From: an uncultured Candidatus Saccharibacteria bacterium | GTDB lineage: Bacteria; Patescibacteriota; Minisyncoccia; Phycocordibacterales; JAACPR01 | Reading direction: 5' to 3' | DNA length: 64,000 nt | Assembly (NCBI GenBank): GCA_964402215.1 | Contig: CAYOAT010000001.1 | Span: 70,703 to 134,702 of the forward strand | Shown here: positions 6,362 to 61,558 of the stretch, piece by piece | Position numbering within the stretch: the stretch's first letter is position 1 | Layout: every line of letters starts with the position of its first letter | Position numbers and translations under genes: made by a program | The notes under the pieces: model-generated | Told to the model about the DNA's origin: nothing | Seen by the model: the letters and a program-made list of their open reading frames with translations, nothing else | Databases searched by the model: none

Positions 6362-7795
6362 TTATTTTCTTTCGAAAATTGGTTTCACTGGTTTTTTATT
6401 ATCAGCAATCGCAGTCAAAATTTGTCCTGCAGTTTCAGGTAAAAGTGGTCGAAGCAAAAATGCGACTTCTCGAAGCTTCTTTACTAAATCCTCAATTATT
6501 TTTATCGCAGCTTTTCTATCAGTCTTGATTAATTTAAATGGTTCAGTTTCTTGAATAGATTTATCCATTTCACTAATCTTTTTGAAAACATAATCAGTGA
6601 CTTTCTGTAAATCAAATGATTCAAAAGCTTTTTTATATTCTTTTGGAAATTTAACTTCTTTTAACGAAATTGGTTTTACTAAATTGTCCTCTGCCATTTT
6701 CATAATTCGGTTAATCAGATTCCCAAGACCATTTGCGAGATTTGCGTTGTAAGCTTCTTTGAATTTTTCCAATGTGAAATCACTATCTTCAAATGTGCTT
6801 AATTCTCTTAACAAGAAATATCTTAGCGCGTCTGTACCGTATTCAGAGACAACTTCCATTGGATCAATAACATTTCCAATGGATTTGGACATTTTTTGAC
6901 CACCGCTGGTAATAAAGCCGTCAATAATTATTTGGCTTGAAGATGGCAAATTCGCCGCCATTAACATTGCTTGCCAACGCGCCGCTTGGAAATGTAGATT
7001 GTCTTTTCCACAATACTGAATAGGCGTTCCTTTTACCCAATATTTTTTAAAGTTTTTACTTTCTGGCCAACCTAATGTTGAAATATAGTTTGCCAAAGCA
7101 TCAAACCAAACATACATCACATGTTTATCATCACCAGGAACAGCTATTCCCCATGGCATTCTTTCCTTTATTCTTGAAATACTAAAATCCTCTAATCCAC
7201 CAGACACGAAATTACTTATTTCTTTTAATCTGGAAATCGGAATAACAAAATCGGTCTTCTTTTCATATAAATCCAAAAGTTTTTTAGCAAAAGCGCTGTA
7301 TTTGAAAAAATAATTTTCTTCTTCTATTTCTACAAGTTTTTTACCCGGATGATTTGGACATTCGCCATTTACCAAATCCTTCTCTGTCATAAACATTTCA
7401 CAACCAACACAATATAGCCCGCGGTAATTCTTTTTATAAATATAACCGTTCTTGTCGCAAAGCTCCCATAATTTCTGAGCAGAAACAATATGATCTTTAT
7501 CGGTTGTTCTAATAAATTTATCGTAACTTAGATTAAGTTTTTCTTTCAAAATTTCAAAATCCTTAACTTTTTCATCTAGAAATTGTTGTGGTTCTTTTCC
7601 CTCTTCCTTTGCCTTCTGATAAATCTTTAGACCATGCTCATCAGTTCCTGTATTAAAAAAAACATCGTAACCTAAATACCTTTTATATCTTGCCACGGTG
7701 TCAGCCCGAACAATTTCCATCGCAAAACCGATATGAGGTTTTGCATTAGAATAAGGTAAAGTAGTCGTTATATAGAAAGGTTTTTTCCACCACAT
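6362..7795 (-). CDS. metG: methionyl-tRNA synthetase, catalytic core only (no C-terminal tRNA-binding domain)
   Basis: PHIGFA (HIGH-type) and KMSKS motifs; 477 aa. Confidence 0.95.
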   Translation of the reverse strand: MWWKKPFYITTTLPYSNAKPHIGFAMEIVRADTVARYKRYLGYDVFFNTGTDEHGLKIYQKAKEEGKEPQQFLDEKVKDFEILKEKLNLSYDKFIRTTDKDHIVSAQKLWELCDKNGYIYKKNYRGLYCVGCEMFMTEKDLVNGECPNHPGKKLVEIEEENYFFKYSAFAKKLLDLYEKKTDFVIPISRLKEISNFVSGGLEDFSISRIKERMPWGIAVPGDDKHVMYVWFDALANYISTLGWPESKNFKKYWVKGTPIQYCGKDNLHFQAARWQAMLMAANLPSSSQIIIDGFITSGGQKMSKSIGNVIDPMEVVSEYGTDALRYFLLRELSTFEDSDFTLEKFKEAYNANLANGLGNLINRIMKMAEDNLVKPISLKEVKFPKEYKKAFESFDLQKVTDYVFKKISEMDKSIQETEPFKLIKTDRKAAIKIIEDLVKKLREVAFLLRPLLPETAGQILTAIADNKKPVKPIFERK

Positions 7796-20067: not shown

Positions 20068-20721
20068 TTATCTGAGGCCCAAAATTCGGACGACCTCTTC
20101 GTAAACTTCGTCAGGTGTACGACTGGCATCGATCGTTATGCTCGGGACAAGTTTCATGAACTCACGAAATCCTTCACGGACTCTTTCGTGAAATTCAATC
20201 GGCTTTTCGTCGAGATGGTTCAGATCTTGCTTGCCCTCTTTTTTTCTGGCAAGTGCAACTTGTACATCAACATCAAAAAAGATATAAAGATCTGGCTTAT
20301 AGTCACCAATAATGAAGTTTCTGAAAGTAAAGAAAGTTTCTCTCAGTTCTTCTGCTTCATATCCATAAATCTCGATGGCGAATGTCGCCGAATCAAAACG
20401 ATCGGTAGCAGCCATTAGTCCAGCATCAACCGCAGGTGCAATTGTTTTCTCAACATGATCACATCTTGTTGCCCAGAACATTGTCGCCAAAGTCTTGGCA
20501 CTCGCATTTTTTGCATTAGGCCAAGTCAAAATAGCTGGCCGCAGATCCTCAGCATACGGCGAACCGCCGGGCTCTCTAGTTGTGACAATTTTGTCGCCAA
20601 ACTCTGCTTTTAGTCGCTTTAAAACTGTCGATTTACCAGATCCTTCTGGCCCATCGAATACAAAGAATTTACCTTTTTGTGACATAATTTTCTCCTTGAA
20701 TTTACTTTCTTCTTTCGACAC
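20068..20721 (-). CDS. tmk: thymidylate kinase
   Basis: P-loop FVFDGPEGSGKST; true start may be internal Met (MSQKGKFF). Confidence 0.9.
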   Translation of the reverse strand: MSKEESKFKEKIMSQKGKFFVFDGPEGSGKSTVLKRLKAEFGDKIVTTREPGGSPYAEDLRPAILTWPNAKNASAKTLATMFWATRCDHVEKTIAPAVDAGLMAATDRFDSATFAIEIYGYEAEELRETFFTFRNFIIGDYKPDLYIFFDVDVQVALARKKEGKQDLNHLDEKPIEFHERVREGFREFMKLVPSITIDASRTPDEVYEEVVRILGLR

Positions 20722-26045: not shown

Positions 26046-26531
26046 CTATCTCTTAAATTCCTTTTCGCTCGTATCCAAAAGATAAACATTTTTTATGTTG
26101 GCCCCAATAATTTTGTCCCAGCAGGGTTTACAACACCACCAATGTCCCCACAAATACAAATCGGCGTCGATCGGGTTTTTGCCGTTCTTTATGGCATCTT
26201 TTATAGCTCTCTGTTCACTGTGATCAGAATATTTGGCACACCCAGGACAAGCCCAATACTTCGTACCAGTCTTTATTTTAAGGAGACGTCTAATACACCA
26301 CCCACGCTTGTGCCATTCATTTAAAAGCTTTATATGGCCCAATGGAGCACGGTTAGCGGCCTTACCCAATATCTGCCCGTCTTTTGCTACTACTGAGCCT
26401 GTCGGTTGACCAAAATCTGTTGATTCTTTCATGGCGGTTTCCTTGGCCAAAGCCATAAATTTGTCAGTTATTGGGACATAAAAAATTTGACGCCCTTCTG
26501 GTAAATACGGGTAATTTGTCATATTCAACAT
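26046..26531 (-). CDS. dCMP deaminase-like zinc deaminase with extra Cys cluster
   Basis: HSEQRAI (HAE-like) and CCKPC (PCxxC-like) motifs; additional CPGC upstream. Confidence 0.6.
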   Translation of the reverse strand: MLNMTNYPYLPEGRQIFYVPITDKFMALAKETAMKESTDFGQPTGSVVAKDGQILGKAANRAPLGHIKLLNEWHKRGWCIRRLLKIKTGTKYWACPGCAKYSDHSEQRAIKDAIKNGKNPIDADLYLWGHWWCCKPCWDKIIGANIKNVYLLDTSEKEFKR

Positions 26532-54182: not shown

Positions 54183-54314
54183 ACCGAGCGACAATTATTG
54201 ACAAAGCCAGAATATTTTGCATAATGTTCCATGAATACGTTCCAGTTCATTGATTCGAATTTGATTTAAAAAAACAAAAAACGCTGAGAAATTAGCAAGA
54301 AAAGGAGCATCAGA

Positions 54315-54728
54315 ATGGATATTTCGAAATTGGCACAACGAGTGTTTATGGTCCTCGGAATCATTGGGGCGATTGCCATGATTGGGGTGACCGTTTCAAA
54401 CGCCAATAAAGAAAAAAAACAGCCGCCTACGCAGACCAAATCAGCCGACGAAGAACCGATGGGCTTTATCGCTGATCTGGGCTGGTATCCGATTGTTGGT
54501 ACTGTCCTTACAGAAACCAACAGTGGTTTGAACTTTATTGTGGTGTCCTTTAATGGAAATCTCGACGACGAGAAATCATACAGAAGGGCCTACATTTCAA
54601 AGGAAAATGTCGATGCCGATAACTGGGCTAAATCAAACCCAGAAACCGGACGCTATGAGGCCCACATTTACTATGAAGTTTTGCCCGGCAAAACAACCGG
54701 CGCCTTCATGGTCGAGTGGCCGAAATAG
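54315..54728 (+). CDS. hypothetical secreted/membrane-anchored protein in a GC-rich patch
   Basis: N-terminal hydrophobic helix; strong RBS AAGGAG 8 nt upstream; local G+C clearly above flanks. Confidence 0.5.
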   Translation: MDISKLAQRVFMVLGIIGAIAMIGVTVSNANKEKKQPPTQTKSADEEPMGFIADLGWYPIVGTVLTETNSGLNFIVVSFNGNLDDEKSYRRAYISKENVDADNWAKSNPETGRYEAHIYYEVLPGKTTGAFMVEWPK

Positions 54729-54793
54729 AACAAGATAAATCCACTCAATACCACAACTTCGGTTGTGGTTTTTTAATTTCATATTAATACAAA

Positions 54794-54821
54794 CAAAAAA
54801 CCGGCATTTGGCCGGCTTTTT
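54794..54821 (-). terminator. rho-independent terminator of rpsT
   Basis: CCGGC-attt-GCCGG hairpin flanked by A/T runs. Confidence 0.6.
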
Positions 54822-54822
54822 A

Positions 54823-55101
54823 TTATTTCTTATCTGCGAATTTTACCTTTTTAATCTTTGCAACCAATCTCGATTTAGTTCTAGCCGCAGCATTTTTGTG
54901 AATAGTGTGCATTTTTGCAGCCTTATCAATTGCTGCATATGCTTCCCCAACCTTTTTCTCTGCTTCAGCAACTTTTTTCTCGCTTAATAATTTTTCAATA
55001 TCTTTTATGACAGCTTTATAAGCTCTTTTTCGGCGTAAGTTAAAAATCGCCTTTTTTTCTCCGGCGCGAATTGCTTTTTTTGCTGAACTTGTTATAGCCA
55101 T
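54823..55101 (-). CDS. rpsT: 30S ribosomal protein S20
   Basis: S20-like basic helical protein (MAITSSAKKAIR...). Confidence 0.9.
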   Translation of the reverse strand: MAITSSAKKAIRAGEKKAIFNLRRKRAYKAVIKDIEKLLSEKKVAEAEKKVGEAYAAIDKAAKMHTIHKNAAARTKSRLVAKIKKVKFADKK

Positions 55102-59182: not shown

Positions 59183-59255
59183 CCGCTCATAGCTCAGTTG
59201 GTAGAGCACCTGCCTTTTAAGCAGAGGGTCGTAGGTTCGATTCCTACTGAGCGGA
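59183..59255 (+). tRNA. tRNA-Lys (anticodon TTT)
   Basis: acceptor CCGCTCA/TGAGCGG, D-arm GCTCAGTTGGTAGAGC, anticodon loop CTTTTAA, T-loop TTCGATT. Confidence 0.85.
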
Positions 59256-59269
59256 CATTAAGAAAAATT

Positions 59270-59292
59270 CAGCGCGTTTGCGCTGTTTTTTT
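59270..59292 (+). terminator. terminator after tRNA-Lys
   Basis: CAGCGC-gttt-GCGCTG hairpin plus T7. Confidence 0.6.
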
Positions 59293-59324
59293 ATAAATAT
59301 TTTTACAAATTATTTTAGAAATAA

Positions 59325-59338
59325 AAAAACTACAAGCC
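59325..59338. repeat. 14-bp direct repeat AAAAACTACAAGCC (left copy) bounding a ~1.5-kb insertion
   Basis: identical 14-mer recurs at 60837..60850, overlapping the holA stop codon; left copy is part of hairpin CTACAAGCC-tgatt-GCTTGTAG. Confidence 0.6.
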
Positions 59339-59407
59339 TGATTGCTTGTAGTTAATCCGACGATTCTCCATTTCTGGAAAGGTAGTCGGCTTACCTTGTT
59401 GGAACCT

Positions 59408-59845
59408 TTACCAGGTTCCGCGAGTGTCATCAGTCACCGCGGCGGGCGGGAACTGCTCTTCACTCTTGCGTAGACTTGAAGACAAGTGCTGCACGAACCA
59501 TGTAACGAAGCGGCACGCAATCATGTACCCAACAACCAGAGCAAGGAGAGATCTCCACGTCCAATCGTTGAAACCCCAGCCGATGACCCATGTTGTCACC
59601 ATATAACCAAAGATCAGCTTGGGAAAAGTCTGATACAGATTGGCCCACGCCGGAGACTGAACCTTGATTTCAGGGATCATTTCGACGCCCAACTTCATGA
59701 GCATCGCAGCCATGCTAACACCGAAGAACGTAGGGACAATTCCCCACACACCTACTGTGCCAAACACAACTATCGGCGCACTCCAGATAACAAATGCCAT
59801 GATTTTAATGACCAGGCATATATCTCGAATCTCATTTTTCTTCAT
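59408..59845 (-). CDS. hypothetical polytopic membrane protein encoded by GC-rich DNA
   Basis: 145 aa, 3-4 TM helices; G+C far above background; plus-strand overlapping ORFs are non-protein-like. Confidence 0.5.
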   Translation of the reverse strand: MKKNEIRDICLVIKIMAFVIWSAPIVVFGTVGVWGIVPTFFGVSMAAMLMKLGVEMIPEIKVQSPAWANLYQTFPKLIFGYMVTTWVIGWGFNDWTWRSLLALVVGYMIACRFVTWFVQHLSSSLRKSEEQFPPAAVTDDTRGTW

Positions 59846-60007
59846 GATTTCTCCTTATCCTTTTTAGGGGATTGTTTTTTAAATCGTTTTTAATGATCAA
59901 ATATACTAATATTATAGCATGGATTATACCATATTGTCAAGAATAACGTTTTGTATTAAAAAACGGGCACCTTTCTTAGTGTCCGTTTGCCAGTTCAAAC
60001 TGGTTCT

Positions 60008-60688
60008 TTACTTTTTACTCCACCTTTTAACATGAATATCAGCCAATTTGTAGAGTTCCTGTTTCTTGAACTCCATGCCGAATTTACCTGCCCTTGTAAG
60101 GGCCTCCTGAAGACTTTGTCGAGTATCAATAATCCAATTTATACGGCGCTTCAACTCATCCAGATCAATATTAGAATTTGATGCATTATTTTTGAGTTCC
60201 GTGAACCCTTCTTCTGCTTGCAAAACAAATGCTGCCAATATTGACAACCGATATCGTGTTGAATCGTAATCAAAGGCGTGACCGATATCAAGGCCCTTCA
60301 TCGATTCAAACAAGTCATCAAATATTCCATCAATTTGCGATGTGCGGATATTCCAAGATATATATATCCGTCTTGGAAAGACATACACGCACGTTATGAC
60401 AATCCCGACAATTATCCACAGCGCCGTTATGGTCTGCGTCGTTGCATGCAACACTGCCATGATTATTTGAATGGCAACAGAAGAAAGGATGATCGTCAAA
60501 AATAAATACAACATCAATCTGATGTTAAATTCAATCCTGCGATATTCATCAATTAACCCATTGATTGTCTCCCCTGATTTAAGATTAATTTTTTCGTAAC
60601 CGTTGATCAGGGCCGAATTAGTAATTCGGATGAAACTATTCACCGCCGATATAGACGTTTTCATTTTCAATGACCTACTGTCTTTCAA
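60008..60688 (-). CDS. hypothetical membrane protein (two central TM helices)
   Basis: 226 aa; lies within the same insertion. Confidence 0.45.
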   Translation of the reverse strand: MKDSRSLKMKTSISAVNSFIRITNSALINGYEKINLKSGETINGLIDEYRRIEFNIRLMLYLFLTIILSSVAIQIIMAVLHATTQTITALWIIVGIVITCVYVFPRRIYISWNIRTSQIDGIFDDLFESMKGLDIGHAFDYDSTRYRLSILAAFVLQAEEGFTELKNNASNSNIDLDELKRRINWIIDTRQSLQEALTRAGKFGMEFKKQELYKLADIHVKRWSKK

Positions 60689-60836
60689 TGCCTATTTTTT
60701 GAACCATAGTCTTTCTGACATTTATACTGACTTTCGATCAAAATAAATACGATTTCTCGTTATGCAATTCGAAATAGTTAGGCAACTATTCTTTGTAGGA
60801 GAATACAATAAAAAGACAATCTGTCAATGTTTAAAG

Positions 60837-60850
60837 AAAAACTACAAGCC
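60837..60850. repeat. 14-bp direct repeat AAAAACTACAAGCC (right copy)
   Basis: identical to 59325..59338; minus-strand reading GGCTTGTAG-TTTTT is the last Gly-Leu-stop of holA. Confidence 0.6.
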
Positions 60851-61558
60851 AAGGATTAATTTTTCTAATCTCGTTTCTAAATCTGGCCCACTCCTTCTCG
60901 ATTCATGATAAACCTCGATCATTTTGTTAGACAAATTTTCTAATTCATCTTTTGAAAAATTCCCTGAATATTTCTTTGCTTTTGAATAGACAAACGGTTT
61001 AAGTCCGGCCTCTTCAGCAAAATCAGTTTGGCTAGCCATCAACATTGTCTTAACTTGCCACCACAAAACTCCATGTATTTCCTCAACAGGAATTCCTTCT
61101 TTTACCGCTGATAAATACAGAATCCATAATTTTTTTGAATCTCTTTCACCAAGAGCATCAGTCAAAGAAAAAATATTAAAAGAATCATTTTTATTTTTCG
61201 CCGCGGCGTTTGAAAATTCTTGAACCTTTTCTGCAAATTTTTCTACTTTTTTTAAAATCTCTTTTGATACATCAGGATCTACCCAAACAAAAACATTATC
61301 TGATTTTTTAACTTCCTCTAATTTATCGACGAGGCATTCAATTCCCTCTTTTGATTCTGAAATACGAGACATTTGCACAATATATTTTTTTGAAAAGAGA
61401 GATTGACTTCCGACAAGCTCATCCAATTTTGATTCGCTGAAATTTTCTGCACTGATTTTAAATACTTCAGATTCTGGTCGCTTCAAAAGCATTGAATCAA
61501 CTAATTTCGCGGATTTTTCAAAACATTTATTTGGTTCGCCGTAAATAAAATAAAGCAT
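60842..61558 (-). CDS. holA: DNA polymerase III delta subunit (short form)
   Basis: MLYFIYGE N-terminus typical of HolA; position immediately downstream of polA. Confidence 0.6.
   Translation of the reverse strand: MLYFIYGEPNKCFEKSAKLVDSMLLKRPESEVFKISAENFSESKLDELVGSQSLFSKKYIVQMSRISESKEGIECLVDKLEEVKKSDNVFVWVDPDVSKEILKKVEKFAEKVQEFSNAAAKNKNDSFNIFSLTDALGERDSKKLWILYLSAVKEGIPVEEIHGVLWWQVKTMLMASQTDFAEEAGLKPFVYSKAKKYSGNFSKDELENLSNKMIEVYHESRRSGPDLETRLEKLILGL

Follow-up and report, generated by a model that had tools for sequence, protein, structure and literature searches.

It is said that the hot-spot concept, in which genomic islets lie at integration hot spots between core genes, goes back to Oliveira, Touchon, Cury and Rocha in 2017. 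In Streptococcus thermophilus, cis-mobilisable integrase-less elements (CIMEs), which are flanked by attachment (att) sites, have been described. Here, I analysed a 64-kb stretch of DNA, hereafter called the window, from an uncultured Candidatus Saccharibacteria bacterium (contig CAYOAT010000001.1 of the assembly GCA_964402215.1). In the window, a 1.5-kb block with two open reading frames (ORFs), ORF218 and ORF145, lies between holA, the gene for the delta subunit of DNA polymerase III, and a tRNA-Lys gene (Table 1; positions are those of the window unless a relative is named). The block is a genomic islet of small size without a recombinase, located at a hot spot next to a tRNA gene, and is not a new type of mobile element. 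It was found that relatives have an empty site, that the composition of the block is deviant, and that a different cargo occupies the same junction in other lineages. In these respects it resembles the known tRNA-adjacent hot-spot islets, which hold deviant, species-specific genes between core genes, differ in cargo from genome to genome, and in many cases have no mobility genes. Unlike them, the present islet has just 1.5 kb and two genes in a reduced genome, and its repeat derives from the end of a protein gene and a terminator arm rather than from a tRNA.

Three other known systems share some of these features. In Campbell-type integration, by which circular DNA enters in a single crossover and of which short-homology or illegitimate variants exist, the sequence in common likewise ends up as direct repeats at the two borders, the target gene is left whole, and the donor is inserted in circularly permuted form. 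However, the identity is only 14 bp here, far below the length for efficient RecA-dependent recombination, and the donor circle is hypothetical. CIMEs resemble the islet in being cargo-only units bounded by direct repeats without a recombinase, but neither a helper nor a related integrative and conjugative element is known for the islet, whose repeats fall far below typical CIME att sites in length, and there is no second copy. Integron cassettes, too, are small, carry a single gene each, have an imperfect palindrome on the 3′ side, and are inserted serially at a fixed site. In contrast, the units of the islet have their own promoters, and their palindromes are ordinary terminators with T-tracts. 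An integron was rejected because no intI gene (IntI), attI site, or GTTRRRY core was found and a heuristic motif screen of the window gave no signature of a tyrosine recombinase. A classical tRNA-targeting integrase island or prophage was also rejected, since there is no integrase at the island end and the repeat consists of the holA end and five T residues, not of the 3′ part of the tRNA. An insertion sequence, a miniature inverted-repeat transposable element, or a casposon does not fit a block that lacks terminal inverted repeats, occurs as a single copy in the window and the collections searched, and has a repeat that pairs with its internal sequence. An integrative mobile element exploiting Xer (IMEX) was likewise rejected, since the window has neither a dif-like 11-6-11 site nor a switch of GC skew.

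The insertion was read from a comparison with relatives. In the closest relative found (L017, JGI Ga0643523_0000042; holA 89% identical), the holA stop codon and the tRNA-Lys gene are only 48 bp apart, and these consist of a 12-nt spacer, the bidirectional terminator, and 5 nt beside the tRNA. In GCA_022711495.1 (L024/L025; holA 61% identical), a single nucleotide lies between the holA stop codon and the 3′ end of the tRNA. When L017 was aligned with the window by blastn, the homology was lost at 60852 and regained at 59294; with another relative, L003 (holA 79% identical), the borders were 60860 and 59292. The lineage-specific block thus spans 59295-60851. Its right edge falls at the right copy of a 14-bp direct repeat, and its left part consists of the left repeat copy and a 30-nt spacer, which presumably flanked the target site on the side away from holA before the insertion. 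An earlier note, made from the letters of the window alone, had proposed that foreign DNA was inserted between holA and tRNA-Lys, and the two empty sites bear this out. The same note had named relatives carrying the same two genes as the finding that would speak against an insertion; both genes are absent from L017 and L024/L025, and the blastn homology to L017 is interrupted between 59294 and 60852.

Other relatives have other cargo at the junction. The filling of L003 is 950 bp long and contains a 188-aa ORF with a GC content of 0.53 and a GC content at third codon positions (GC3) of 0.69, together with its own consensus promoter and terminator. The same filling is present in L020, a 98%-identical counterpart of L003 from a different sample. 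A more distant relative, L004 (holA 47% identical), has a GC-rich 95-aa ORF there. The fillings of the window, L003/L020, and L004 have no homology to one another and gave no match in the profile libraries. In total, the junction holds independent, compositionally deviant cargo in three of the five closest lineages and is empty in the other two. Since two other relatives hold different GC-rich cargo, the holA/tRNA-Lys junction is an insertion hot spot. In L003 and L004, a duplication of the holA end was not significant. Nor did the spacer give a significant local alignment with the tRNA and the sequence beside it in the window, L003, or L004, so that tRNA-derived repeats were not seen in any of the three.

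As a separate observation on L003, a strong 57-nt hairpin (−27.9 kcal/mol, z = −7.8) was found at 6800-6870 of that contig, in the leader between the consensus promoter and the GC-rich cargo ORF. The 3′ side of this hairpin has an imperfect repeat (17 of 20 positions), TGTGGGTnnTTTTATTT, in common with the terminator downstream of the cargo ORF (7581-7600). This repeat was considered as an att signature around the L003 cargo and set aside, being T-rich and of doubtful meaning.

The islet is built of what appear to be two self-contained expression units, each with a predicted promoter, an ORF, and an intrinsic terminator. Read in the direction of holA, the order is right repeat copy, promoter, ORF218, terminator, promoter, ORF145, and a terminator whose 3′ arm is the left repeat copy. 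The composition of the islet is foreign. GC3 is 0.589 in ORF145 and 0.43 in ORF218, against a mean of 0.27 (standard deviation 0.07) over 61 ORFs of the window. The overall GC contents of the two ORFs are 0.495 and 0.387, respectively, and the intergenic parts of the islet are AT-rich. The statement of the earlier note that the G+C content is far above the background thus holds for ORF145, whereas that of ORF218 is raised moderately. Its statement that the insert has no recombinase was correct: the 1.5 kb is taken up by two small membrane-protein ORFs with their promoters and terminators, which leaves no room for an integrase gene, and neither such a gene nor a remnant of one was found within the islet.

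The direct repeat is the 14-mer AAAAACTACAAGCC. The note had located two exact copies of it, had read it as the last two codons and the stop codon of holA, and had assigned the intact hairpin to the left copy only, and all three points were reproduced (Table 1). It had also asked whether the 14-mer is a common word of the genome. There are only two copies in the window and no further ones at up to one mismatch; shuffled sequences led to an expectation of 0.05 copies, and two copies were reached in 0 of 100 shuffles. At up to three mismatches, the sole additional match in the islet is the opposite arm of the hairpin (59343-59356). The hairpin in question is the ORF145 terminator, which has 10 pairs and a loop of 6 in the terminator scan and folds as RNA with −14.6 kcal/mol (z = −5.8). 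No such structure is present at the right copy (−5.0 kcal/mol, z = −0.05). The 5′ arm of the terminator is islet-internal sequence and is complementary over 10 nt to the left repeat copy. The right copy is native holA sequence, because the C-terminus of HolA, ...EKLILGL*, is the same in L003.

With moderate confidence, I favour the reading that the stretch 59339-60836 and one of the two 14-mers were gained by horizontal transfer, as a 1.5-kb islet that entered via a single crossover within the 14-bp identity. The donor would have been circular or tandemly repeated DNA with the ORF145 terminator, of which the 3′ arm and U-tract took part. Because the left copy pairs with a 10-nt arm inside the islet, the donor must already have carried GCTTGTAGTT(T)n. 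Its chromosomal partner would have been the native holA end, GGCTTGTAG followed by TTTTT. One reciprocal Campbell-type crossover within the identity, or two template switches at the 14-mer as an equivalent route, would leave a hybrid 14-mer at each border, an intact holA gene, and the donor terminator hairpin on the tRNA side. The predicted empty site before the insertion reads ...TTAATCCTTGGCTTGTAGTTTTTTTATTTCTAAAATAATTTG, and the predicted junction of the donor circle reads ...CTACAAGCAATCAGGCTTGTAGTTTTTCTTTAAACATTGACAG. When the ends of the islet are joined through the 14-mer, a coherent circle of 1,512 bp results, with the −35 element of ORF218 lying 10 nt past the ORF145 terminator.

As for the enzyme, short-homology recombination by the host after DNA uptake is slightly favoured over a site-specific integrase acting in trans. 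The islet interior and the remaining 62.5 kb of the window have two other 14-mers in common by chance, which extrapolates to roughly 30 per Mb. The earlier note had suggested that the insert may have been mobilised in trans; since a 14-bp identity somewhere in a genome of about 1 Mb is thus expected by chance, a dedicated integrase or an evolved att site is not needed. Saccharibacteria are naturally competent and integrate incoming DNA by recombination (PMC10633639). Natural competence is a plausible route of uptake, and also a plausible route for later exchange of filled and empty alleles via the conserved flanks.

Several points weigh against entry by such a crossover. I infer the crossover from one filled allele, and no circular junction was found. 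The islet-containing contigs (the NCBI metagenome-assembled genome, JGI 3300020048, ENA ERZ27262924, and Logan SRR7760390), which are 99.85-100% identical, probably all come from one sample. Exact-protein look-ups with HolA, DoxX, and ORF218 for an empty allele of the same species gave filled contigs only, and a metagenome scan for such an allele gave distant relatives only. In model bacteria, an identity of just 14 bp supports recombination poorly. The origin of a circle of 1.5 kb that has no replication function would be hard to account for. The GC contents of 0.39 for ORF218 and 0.50 for ORF145 could mean two sources or two events. The use of the same junction in three lineages exceeds what random microhomology would give, and hints at targeting or at an exchange by flanking homology. 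L017 also has the GC-rich gene that lies elsewhere in the window (54315-54728), and it is still GC-rich in both; therefore high GC alone is no proof of recent arrival. Finally, three of the islet assemblies break or have a gap at 59470-59492 within ORF145, beside a G/C single-nucleotide polymorphism.

An unlikely but serious alternative is that the islet is a non-autonomous integrative element, similar to a CIME or a satellite, with the 14-mer as the att core, and would be inserted and excised by a site-specific tyrosine or serine recombinase whose gene lies in another part of the genome or on a helper element. Exact direct repeats do bound a cargo-only element beside a tRNA gene, three lineages have different cargo at one junction as expected for a targeted site, and the 10-6-10 palindrome overlaps the 14-mer core. 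However, the identity block is one arm of the palindrome without the 6-nt spacer, and thus the palindrome cannot be a classical core of a tyrosine recombinase, with strand exchange in the spacer. None of the three cargos has tRNA-derived repeats, L003 and L004 have no significant duplication of the holA end, and no copy or relative of the element was found in the collections searched. A heuristic motif screen of the 64-kb window, with the rest of the genome outside the screen, gave no signature of a tyrosine or serine recombinase.

A bolder idea is that Saccharibacteria capture cassettes: minicircles without a recombinase, each made of a promoter, an ORF, and a terminator, would be taken up at junctions of convergent genes, with the 3′ arm of the terminator and the T-tract as the attachment sequence, a recombinase of the host or a helper as the enzyme, and holA/tRNA-Lys as a dedicated landing pad. 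I regard this as improbable; if true, it would be an acquisition system distinct from integrons.

The repeat could also be a target-site duplication made by the staggered cut of a transposase or a casposase-like enzyme acting in trans, and this is quite improbable. Perfect short direct repeats do bound the insert, and casposons are known to make duplications of 14-15 bp at the 3′ ends of genes. In contrast to such elements, the islet has no terminal inverted repeats, transposase, Cas1, or polymerase, and it is single-copy and was not found elsewhere. A duplication of the target by a staggered cut does not explain the repeat, because the left copy is paired with an islet-internal arm; under this explanation, the 10-bp stem between the left copy and the islet interior would have to arise by chance, at odds of about 1 in 10^6. 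The earlier note had offered a target-site duplication and a duplication of an att core side by side. The att-like alternative, or a crossover, fits better than a duplication by a transposase.

That the two genes are ancestral at the junction and that the relatives lost them by deletion, slippage between the repeats being one way, is very hard to sustain. Direct repeats are able to drive a precise deletion, and the GC-rich gene at 54315-54728 has kept its GC bias across the split from L017. However, the empty relatives (holA 89% and 61% identical) bracket filled ones with unrelated cargo, so that several independent losses and replacements would be needed. Moreover, neither ORF has a homologue in any relative, and the two repeat copies are still identical.

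It is barely credible that the islet is an assembly chimera, with foreign reads in a metagenome-assembled genome, or that the repeat is a coincidence: the JGI, ENA, and Logan assemblies do break or have a gap at the site in ORF145, but separate contigs span each junction (L015 runs from DoxX through tRNA-Lys and the left repeat to 59472, and L002 and L028 cover the stretch from holA across the right repeat as far as ORF145, which they enter), the JGI scaffold joins both sides, the reading frame and the GC-rich composition of ORF145 run on across the gap, and 14 bp are too short for a k-mer mis-join. In the JGI scaffold, the gap consists of 10 N residues; of two ENA contigs, one ends at 59472 and the other starts at 59476, and the Logan contig ends at 59492. 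The break site is also near a small inverted repeat, GACTTG-AAGA-CAAGTC, and the window sequence is continuous there.

The locus shows cleanly, at base-pair resolution, how an ultra-small bacterium that depends on a host has gained genes: sites with and without the insert are at hand, the borders are exact, and a repeat marks the junctions. The acquisition of envelope proteins by such reduced genomes is little known. The hot spot could serve as a marker for strain typing, and it could be a candidate for a neutral landing site when Saccharibacteria are engineered genetically.

Table 1. Features of the holA/tRNA-Lys junction in the window, from the tRNA side to the holA side (.: no strand assigned).
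Feature	Position	Strand	Remarks
tRNA-Lys (UUU)	59183..59256	+	ARAGORN; Rfam tRNA 73 bits; convergent with holA; left border of the hot spot
Bidirectional terminator hairpin CAGCGC-GTTT-GCGCTG	59270..59285	.	A/T runs on both sides; two-strand scan; fold −13.5 kcal/mol
30-nt AT-rich spacer	59295..59324	.	Outside the blastn homology to L017 and L003
Left (tRNA-side) 14-bp direct-repeat copy	59325..59338	.	Minus strand reads GGCTTGTAGTTTTT, i.e. 3′ arm of the ORF145 terminator and start of the U-tract
ORF145 intrinsic terminator	59328..59353	-	AACTACAAGC-AATCAG-GCTTGTAGTT, then TTTTTATTT (T7)
ORF145	59408..59845	-	145-aa membrane protein
ORF145 sigma-70-type promoter TTGACA-18-TATAAT, extended −10 TG	59911..59940	-	Promoter scan, 12/12; pattern match only
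ORF218 terminator hairpin AAACGGACAC...GUGCCCGUUUU	59961..59988	-	RNA fold −16.2 kcal/mol, z = −3.4
ORF218	60008..60664	-	218 aa; ATG at 60664; longest ORF from TTG at 60688
ORF218 promoter-like site TTGACA-16-TATTCT	60800..60827	-	Promoter scan, 10/12 matches; begins 10 nt past the right repeat copy
Right (holA-side) 14-bp direct-repeat copy	60837..60850	.	Minus strand GGC TTG TAG and TTTTT, i.e. last two codons of holA, stop codon, and five T
holA (DNA polymerase III delta subunit)	60842..61558	-	Pfam PF21694 DNA_pol3_delta_C, 38 bits (cut-off 27); bounds the hot spot on the right

Both cargo products have strong hydrophobic segments, in keeping with the two minus-strand membrane-protein genes of the earlier note, and the homology searches that it had called for gave no close homologue of either. 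In a word-indexed database of 5.8 billion clusters, ORF145 and ORF218 hit only themselves, and no close homologue of the cargo was found across about 15 billion proteins. Phage, plasmid, and IMG/VR collections, searched with DNA, protein, and the exact hairpin, gave no match to the islet or to either ORF. In having no close homologues anywhere searched, the cargo is unlike that of an actively spreading element. The AlphaFold2 models were poor, with a predicted local distance difference test score (pLDDT) of 53 for ORF218, too low for a fold search, and 69 for ORF145, and Foldseek against the PDB gave no match at E < 0.8.

The hydrophobic segments of ORF145 are at residues 8-54 and 99-119, and the protein has no match in Pfam, PHROG, PADLOC, or NCBIfam. 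An exhaustive HMMER search of 1.84 billion representatives gave just three remote relatives of 122-139 aa, with 28-31% identity and E values from 2e-7 to 3e-4, which share the motif W..G...[DN]WTW[RKM]S. ORF145 is a distant member of this small family, which is marked by WTW[RK]S. Their genes (L018 5001-5375, L021 1531-1950, and L022 3006-3374) are each convergent to a Mur ligase gene, and in two of the three, L018 and L022, that Mur ligase gene closes a cluster of MraZ, MraW, a penicillin-binding protein, and the Mur ligase. This suggests that the homologues of ORF145 are a conserved small membrane protein tied to cell-wall or division genes. One of the remote relatives has a GC3 of 0.61 in a contig of 49% GC. 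Thus, ORF145 looks like a xenologue from a rare family of bacterial membrane proteins, with four predicted helices.

ORF218 has two transmembrane (TM) helices at about residues 46-102, and its C-terminal half is helical. Nothing was above the threshold in Pfam, PHROGs, PADLOC, or NCBIfam, and a Pfam SLATT match was not among the results. Weak sub-threshold matches were obtained to modules with two TM helices, namely DUF3278 (E = 0.0035) and the N-terminus of ThsA2 in PADLOC (E = 8e-4), and other weak PADLOC matches were CARF_2M (0.056) and RTasSLATT (0.076). Taken as a lead only, ORF218 may resemble a SLATT-type pore-forming effector. With low confidence, the two proteins are predicted to be accessory envelope proteins; ORF218 may be a membrane-perturbing effector, and ORF145 its integral membrane partner.

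The genes around the islet belong to a conserved neighbourhood. The relatives that were recovered through holA are annotated as uncultured Candidatus Saccharibacteria, and the order common to them is T2SSE, TsaE, PolA, HolA, tRNA-Lys, DoxX, SpoU, Fpg, Mur ligase, RuvA, and S20. The tRNA-Lys gene adjoins holA also in relatives with a holA identity of 35-45%. The bidirectional hairpin beside the tRNA is native, as it aligns with L017 and L003, and the tRNA was the sole match in the Rfam search. The orientation of tRNA-Lys varies between L006, L007, L009, and L010 on the one hand and the window, L003, L004, L008, and L017 on the other, being co-directional with holA or convergent. L009 and L010 have a gene resembling a Na/Ca exchanger, of native composition, between holA and tRNA-Lys. 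In the window, an inverted match of 13 of 14 positions was seen between 59252-59265 (CGGACATTAAGAAA, the 3′ end of tRNA-Lys and its flank) and 59972-59985 in the ORF218 terminator. The two copies flank the ORF145 cassette, and the match is of borderline significance (p about 0.06).

Other genes of the window also stand out in composition. The gene at 54315-54728 on the plus strand (with flanks, 54183-54830) encodes a 137-aa protein of no known family with one N-terminal TM helix, and its GC and GC3 are 0.47 and 0.53. It has its own TTGACA promoter and a terminator, and lies between the stop codon of a Na/Ca-exchanger gene and the bidirectional terminator shared with rpsT. Direct repeats at its flanks were not seen. 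A homologue with about 50% amino acid identity, also GC-rich, is in the same place in L017. The counterpart of the site in L003 is empty, the stop codon being directly followed by the terminator. Two ORFs on the minus strand, 26046-26531 and 20068-20721, have a GC3 of 0.42 and 0.37 against the window mean of 0.27 and may be acquired or atypical genes.

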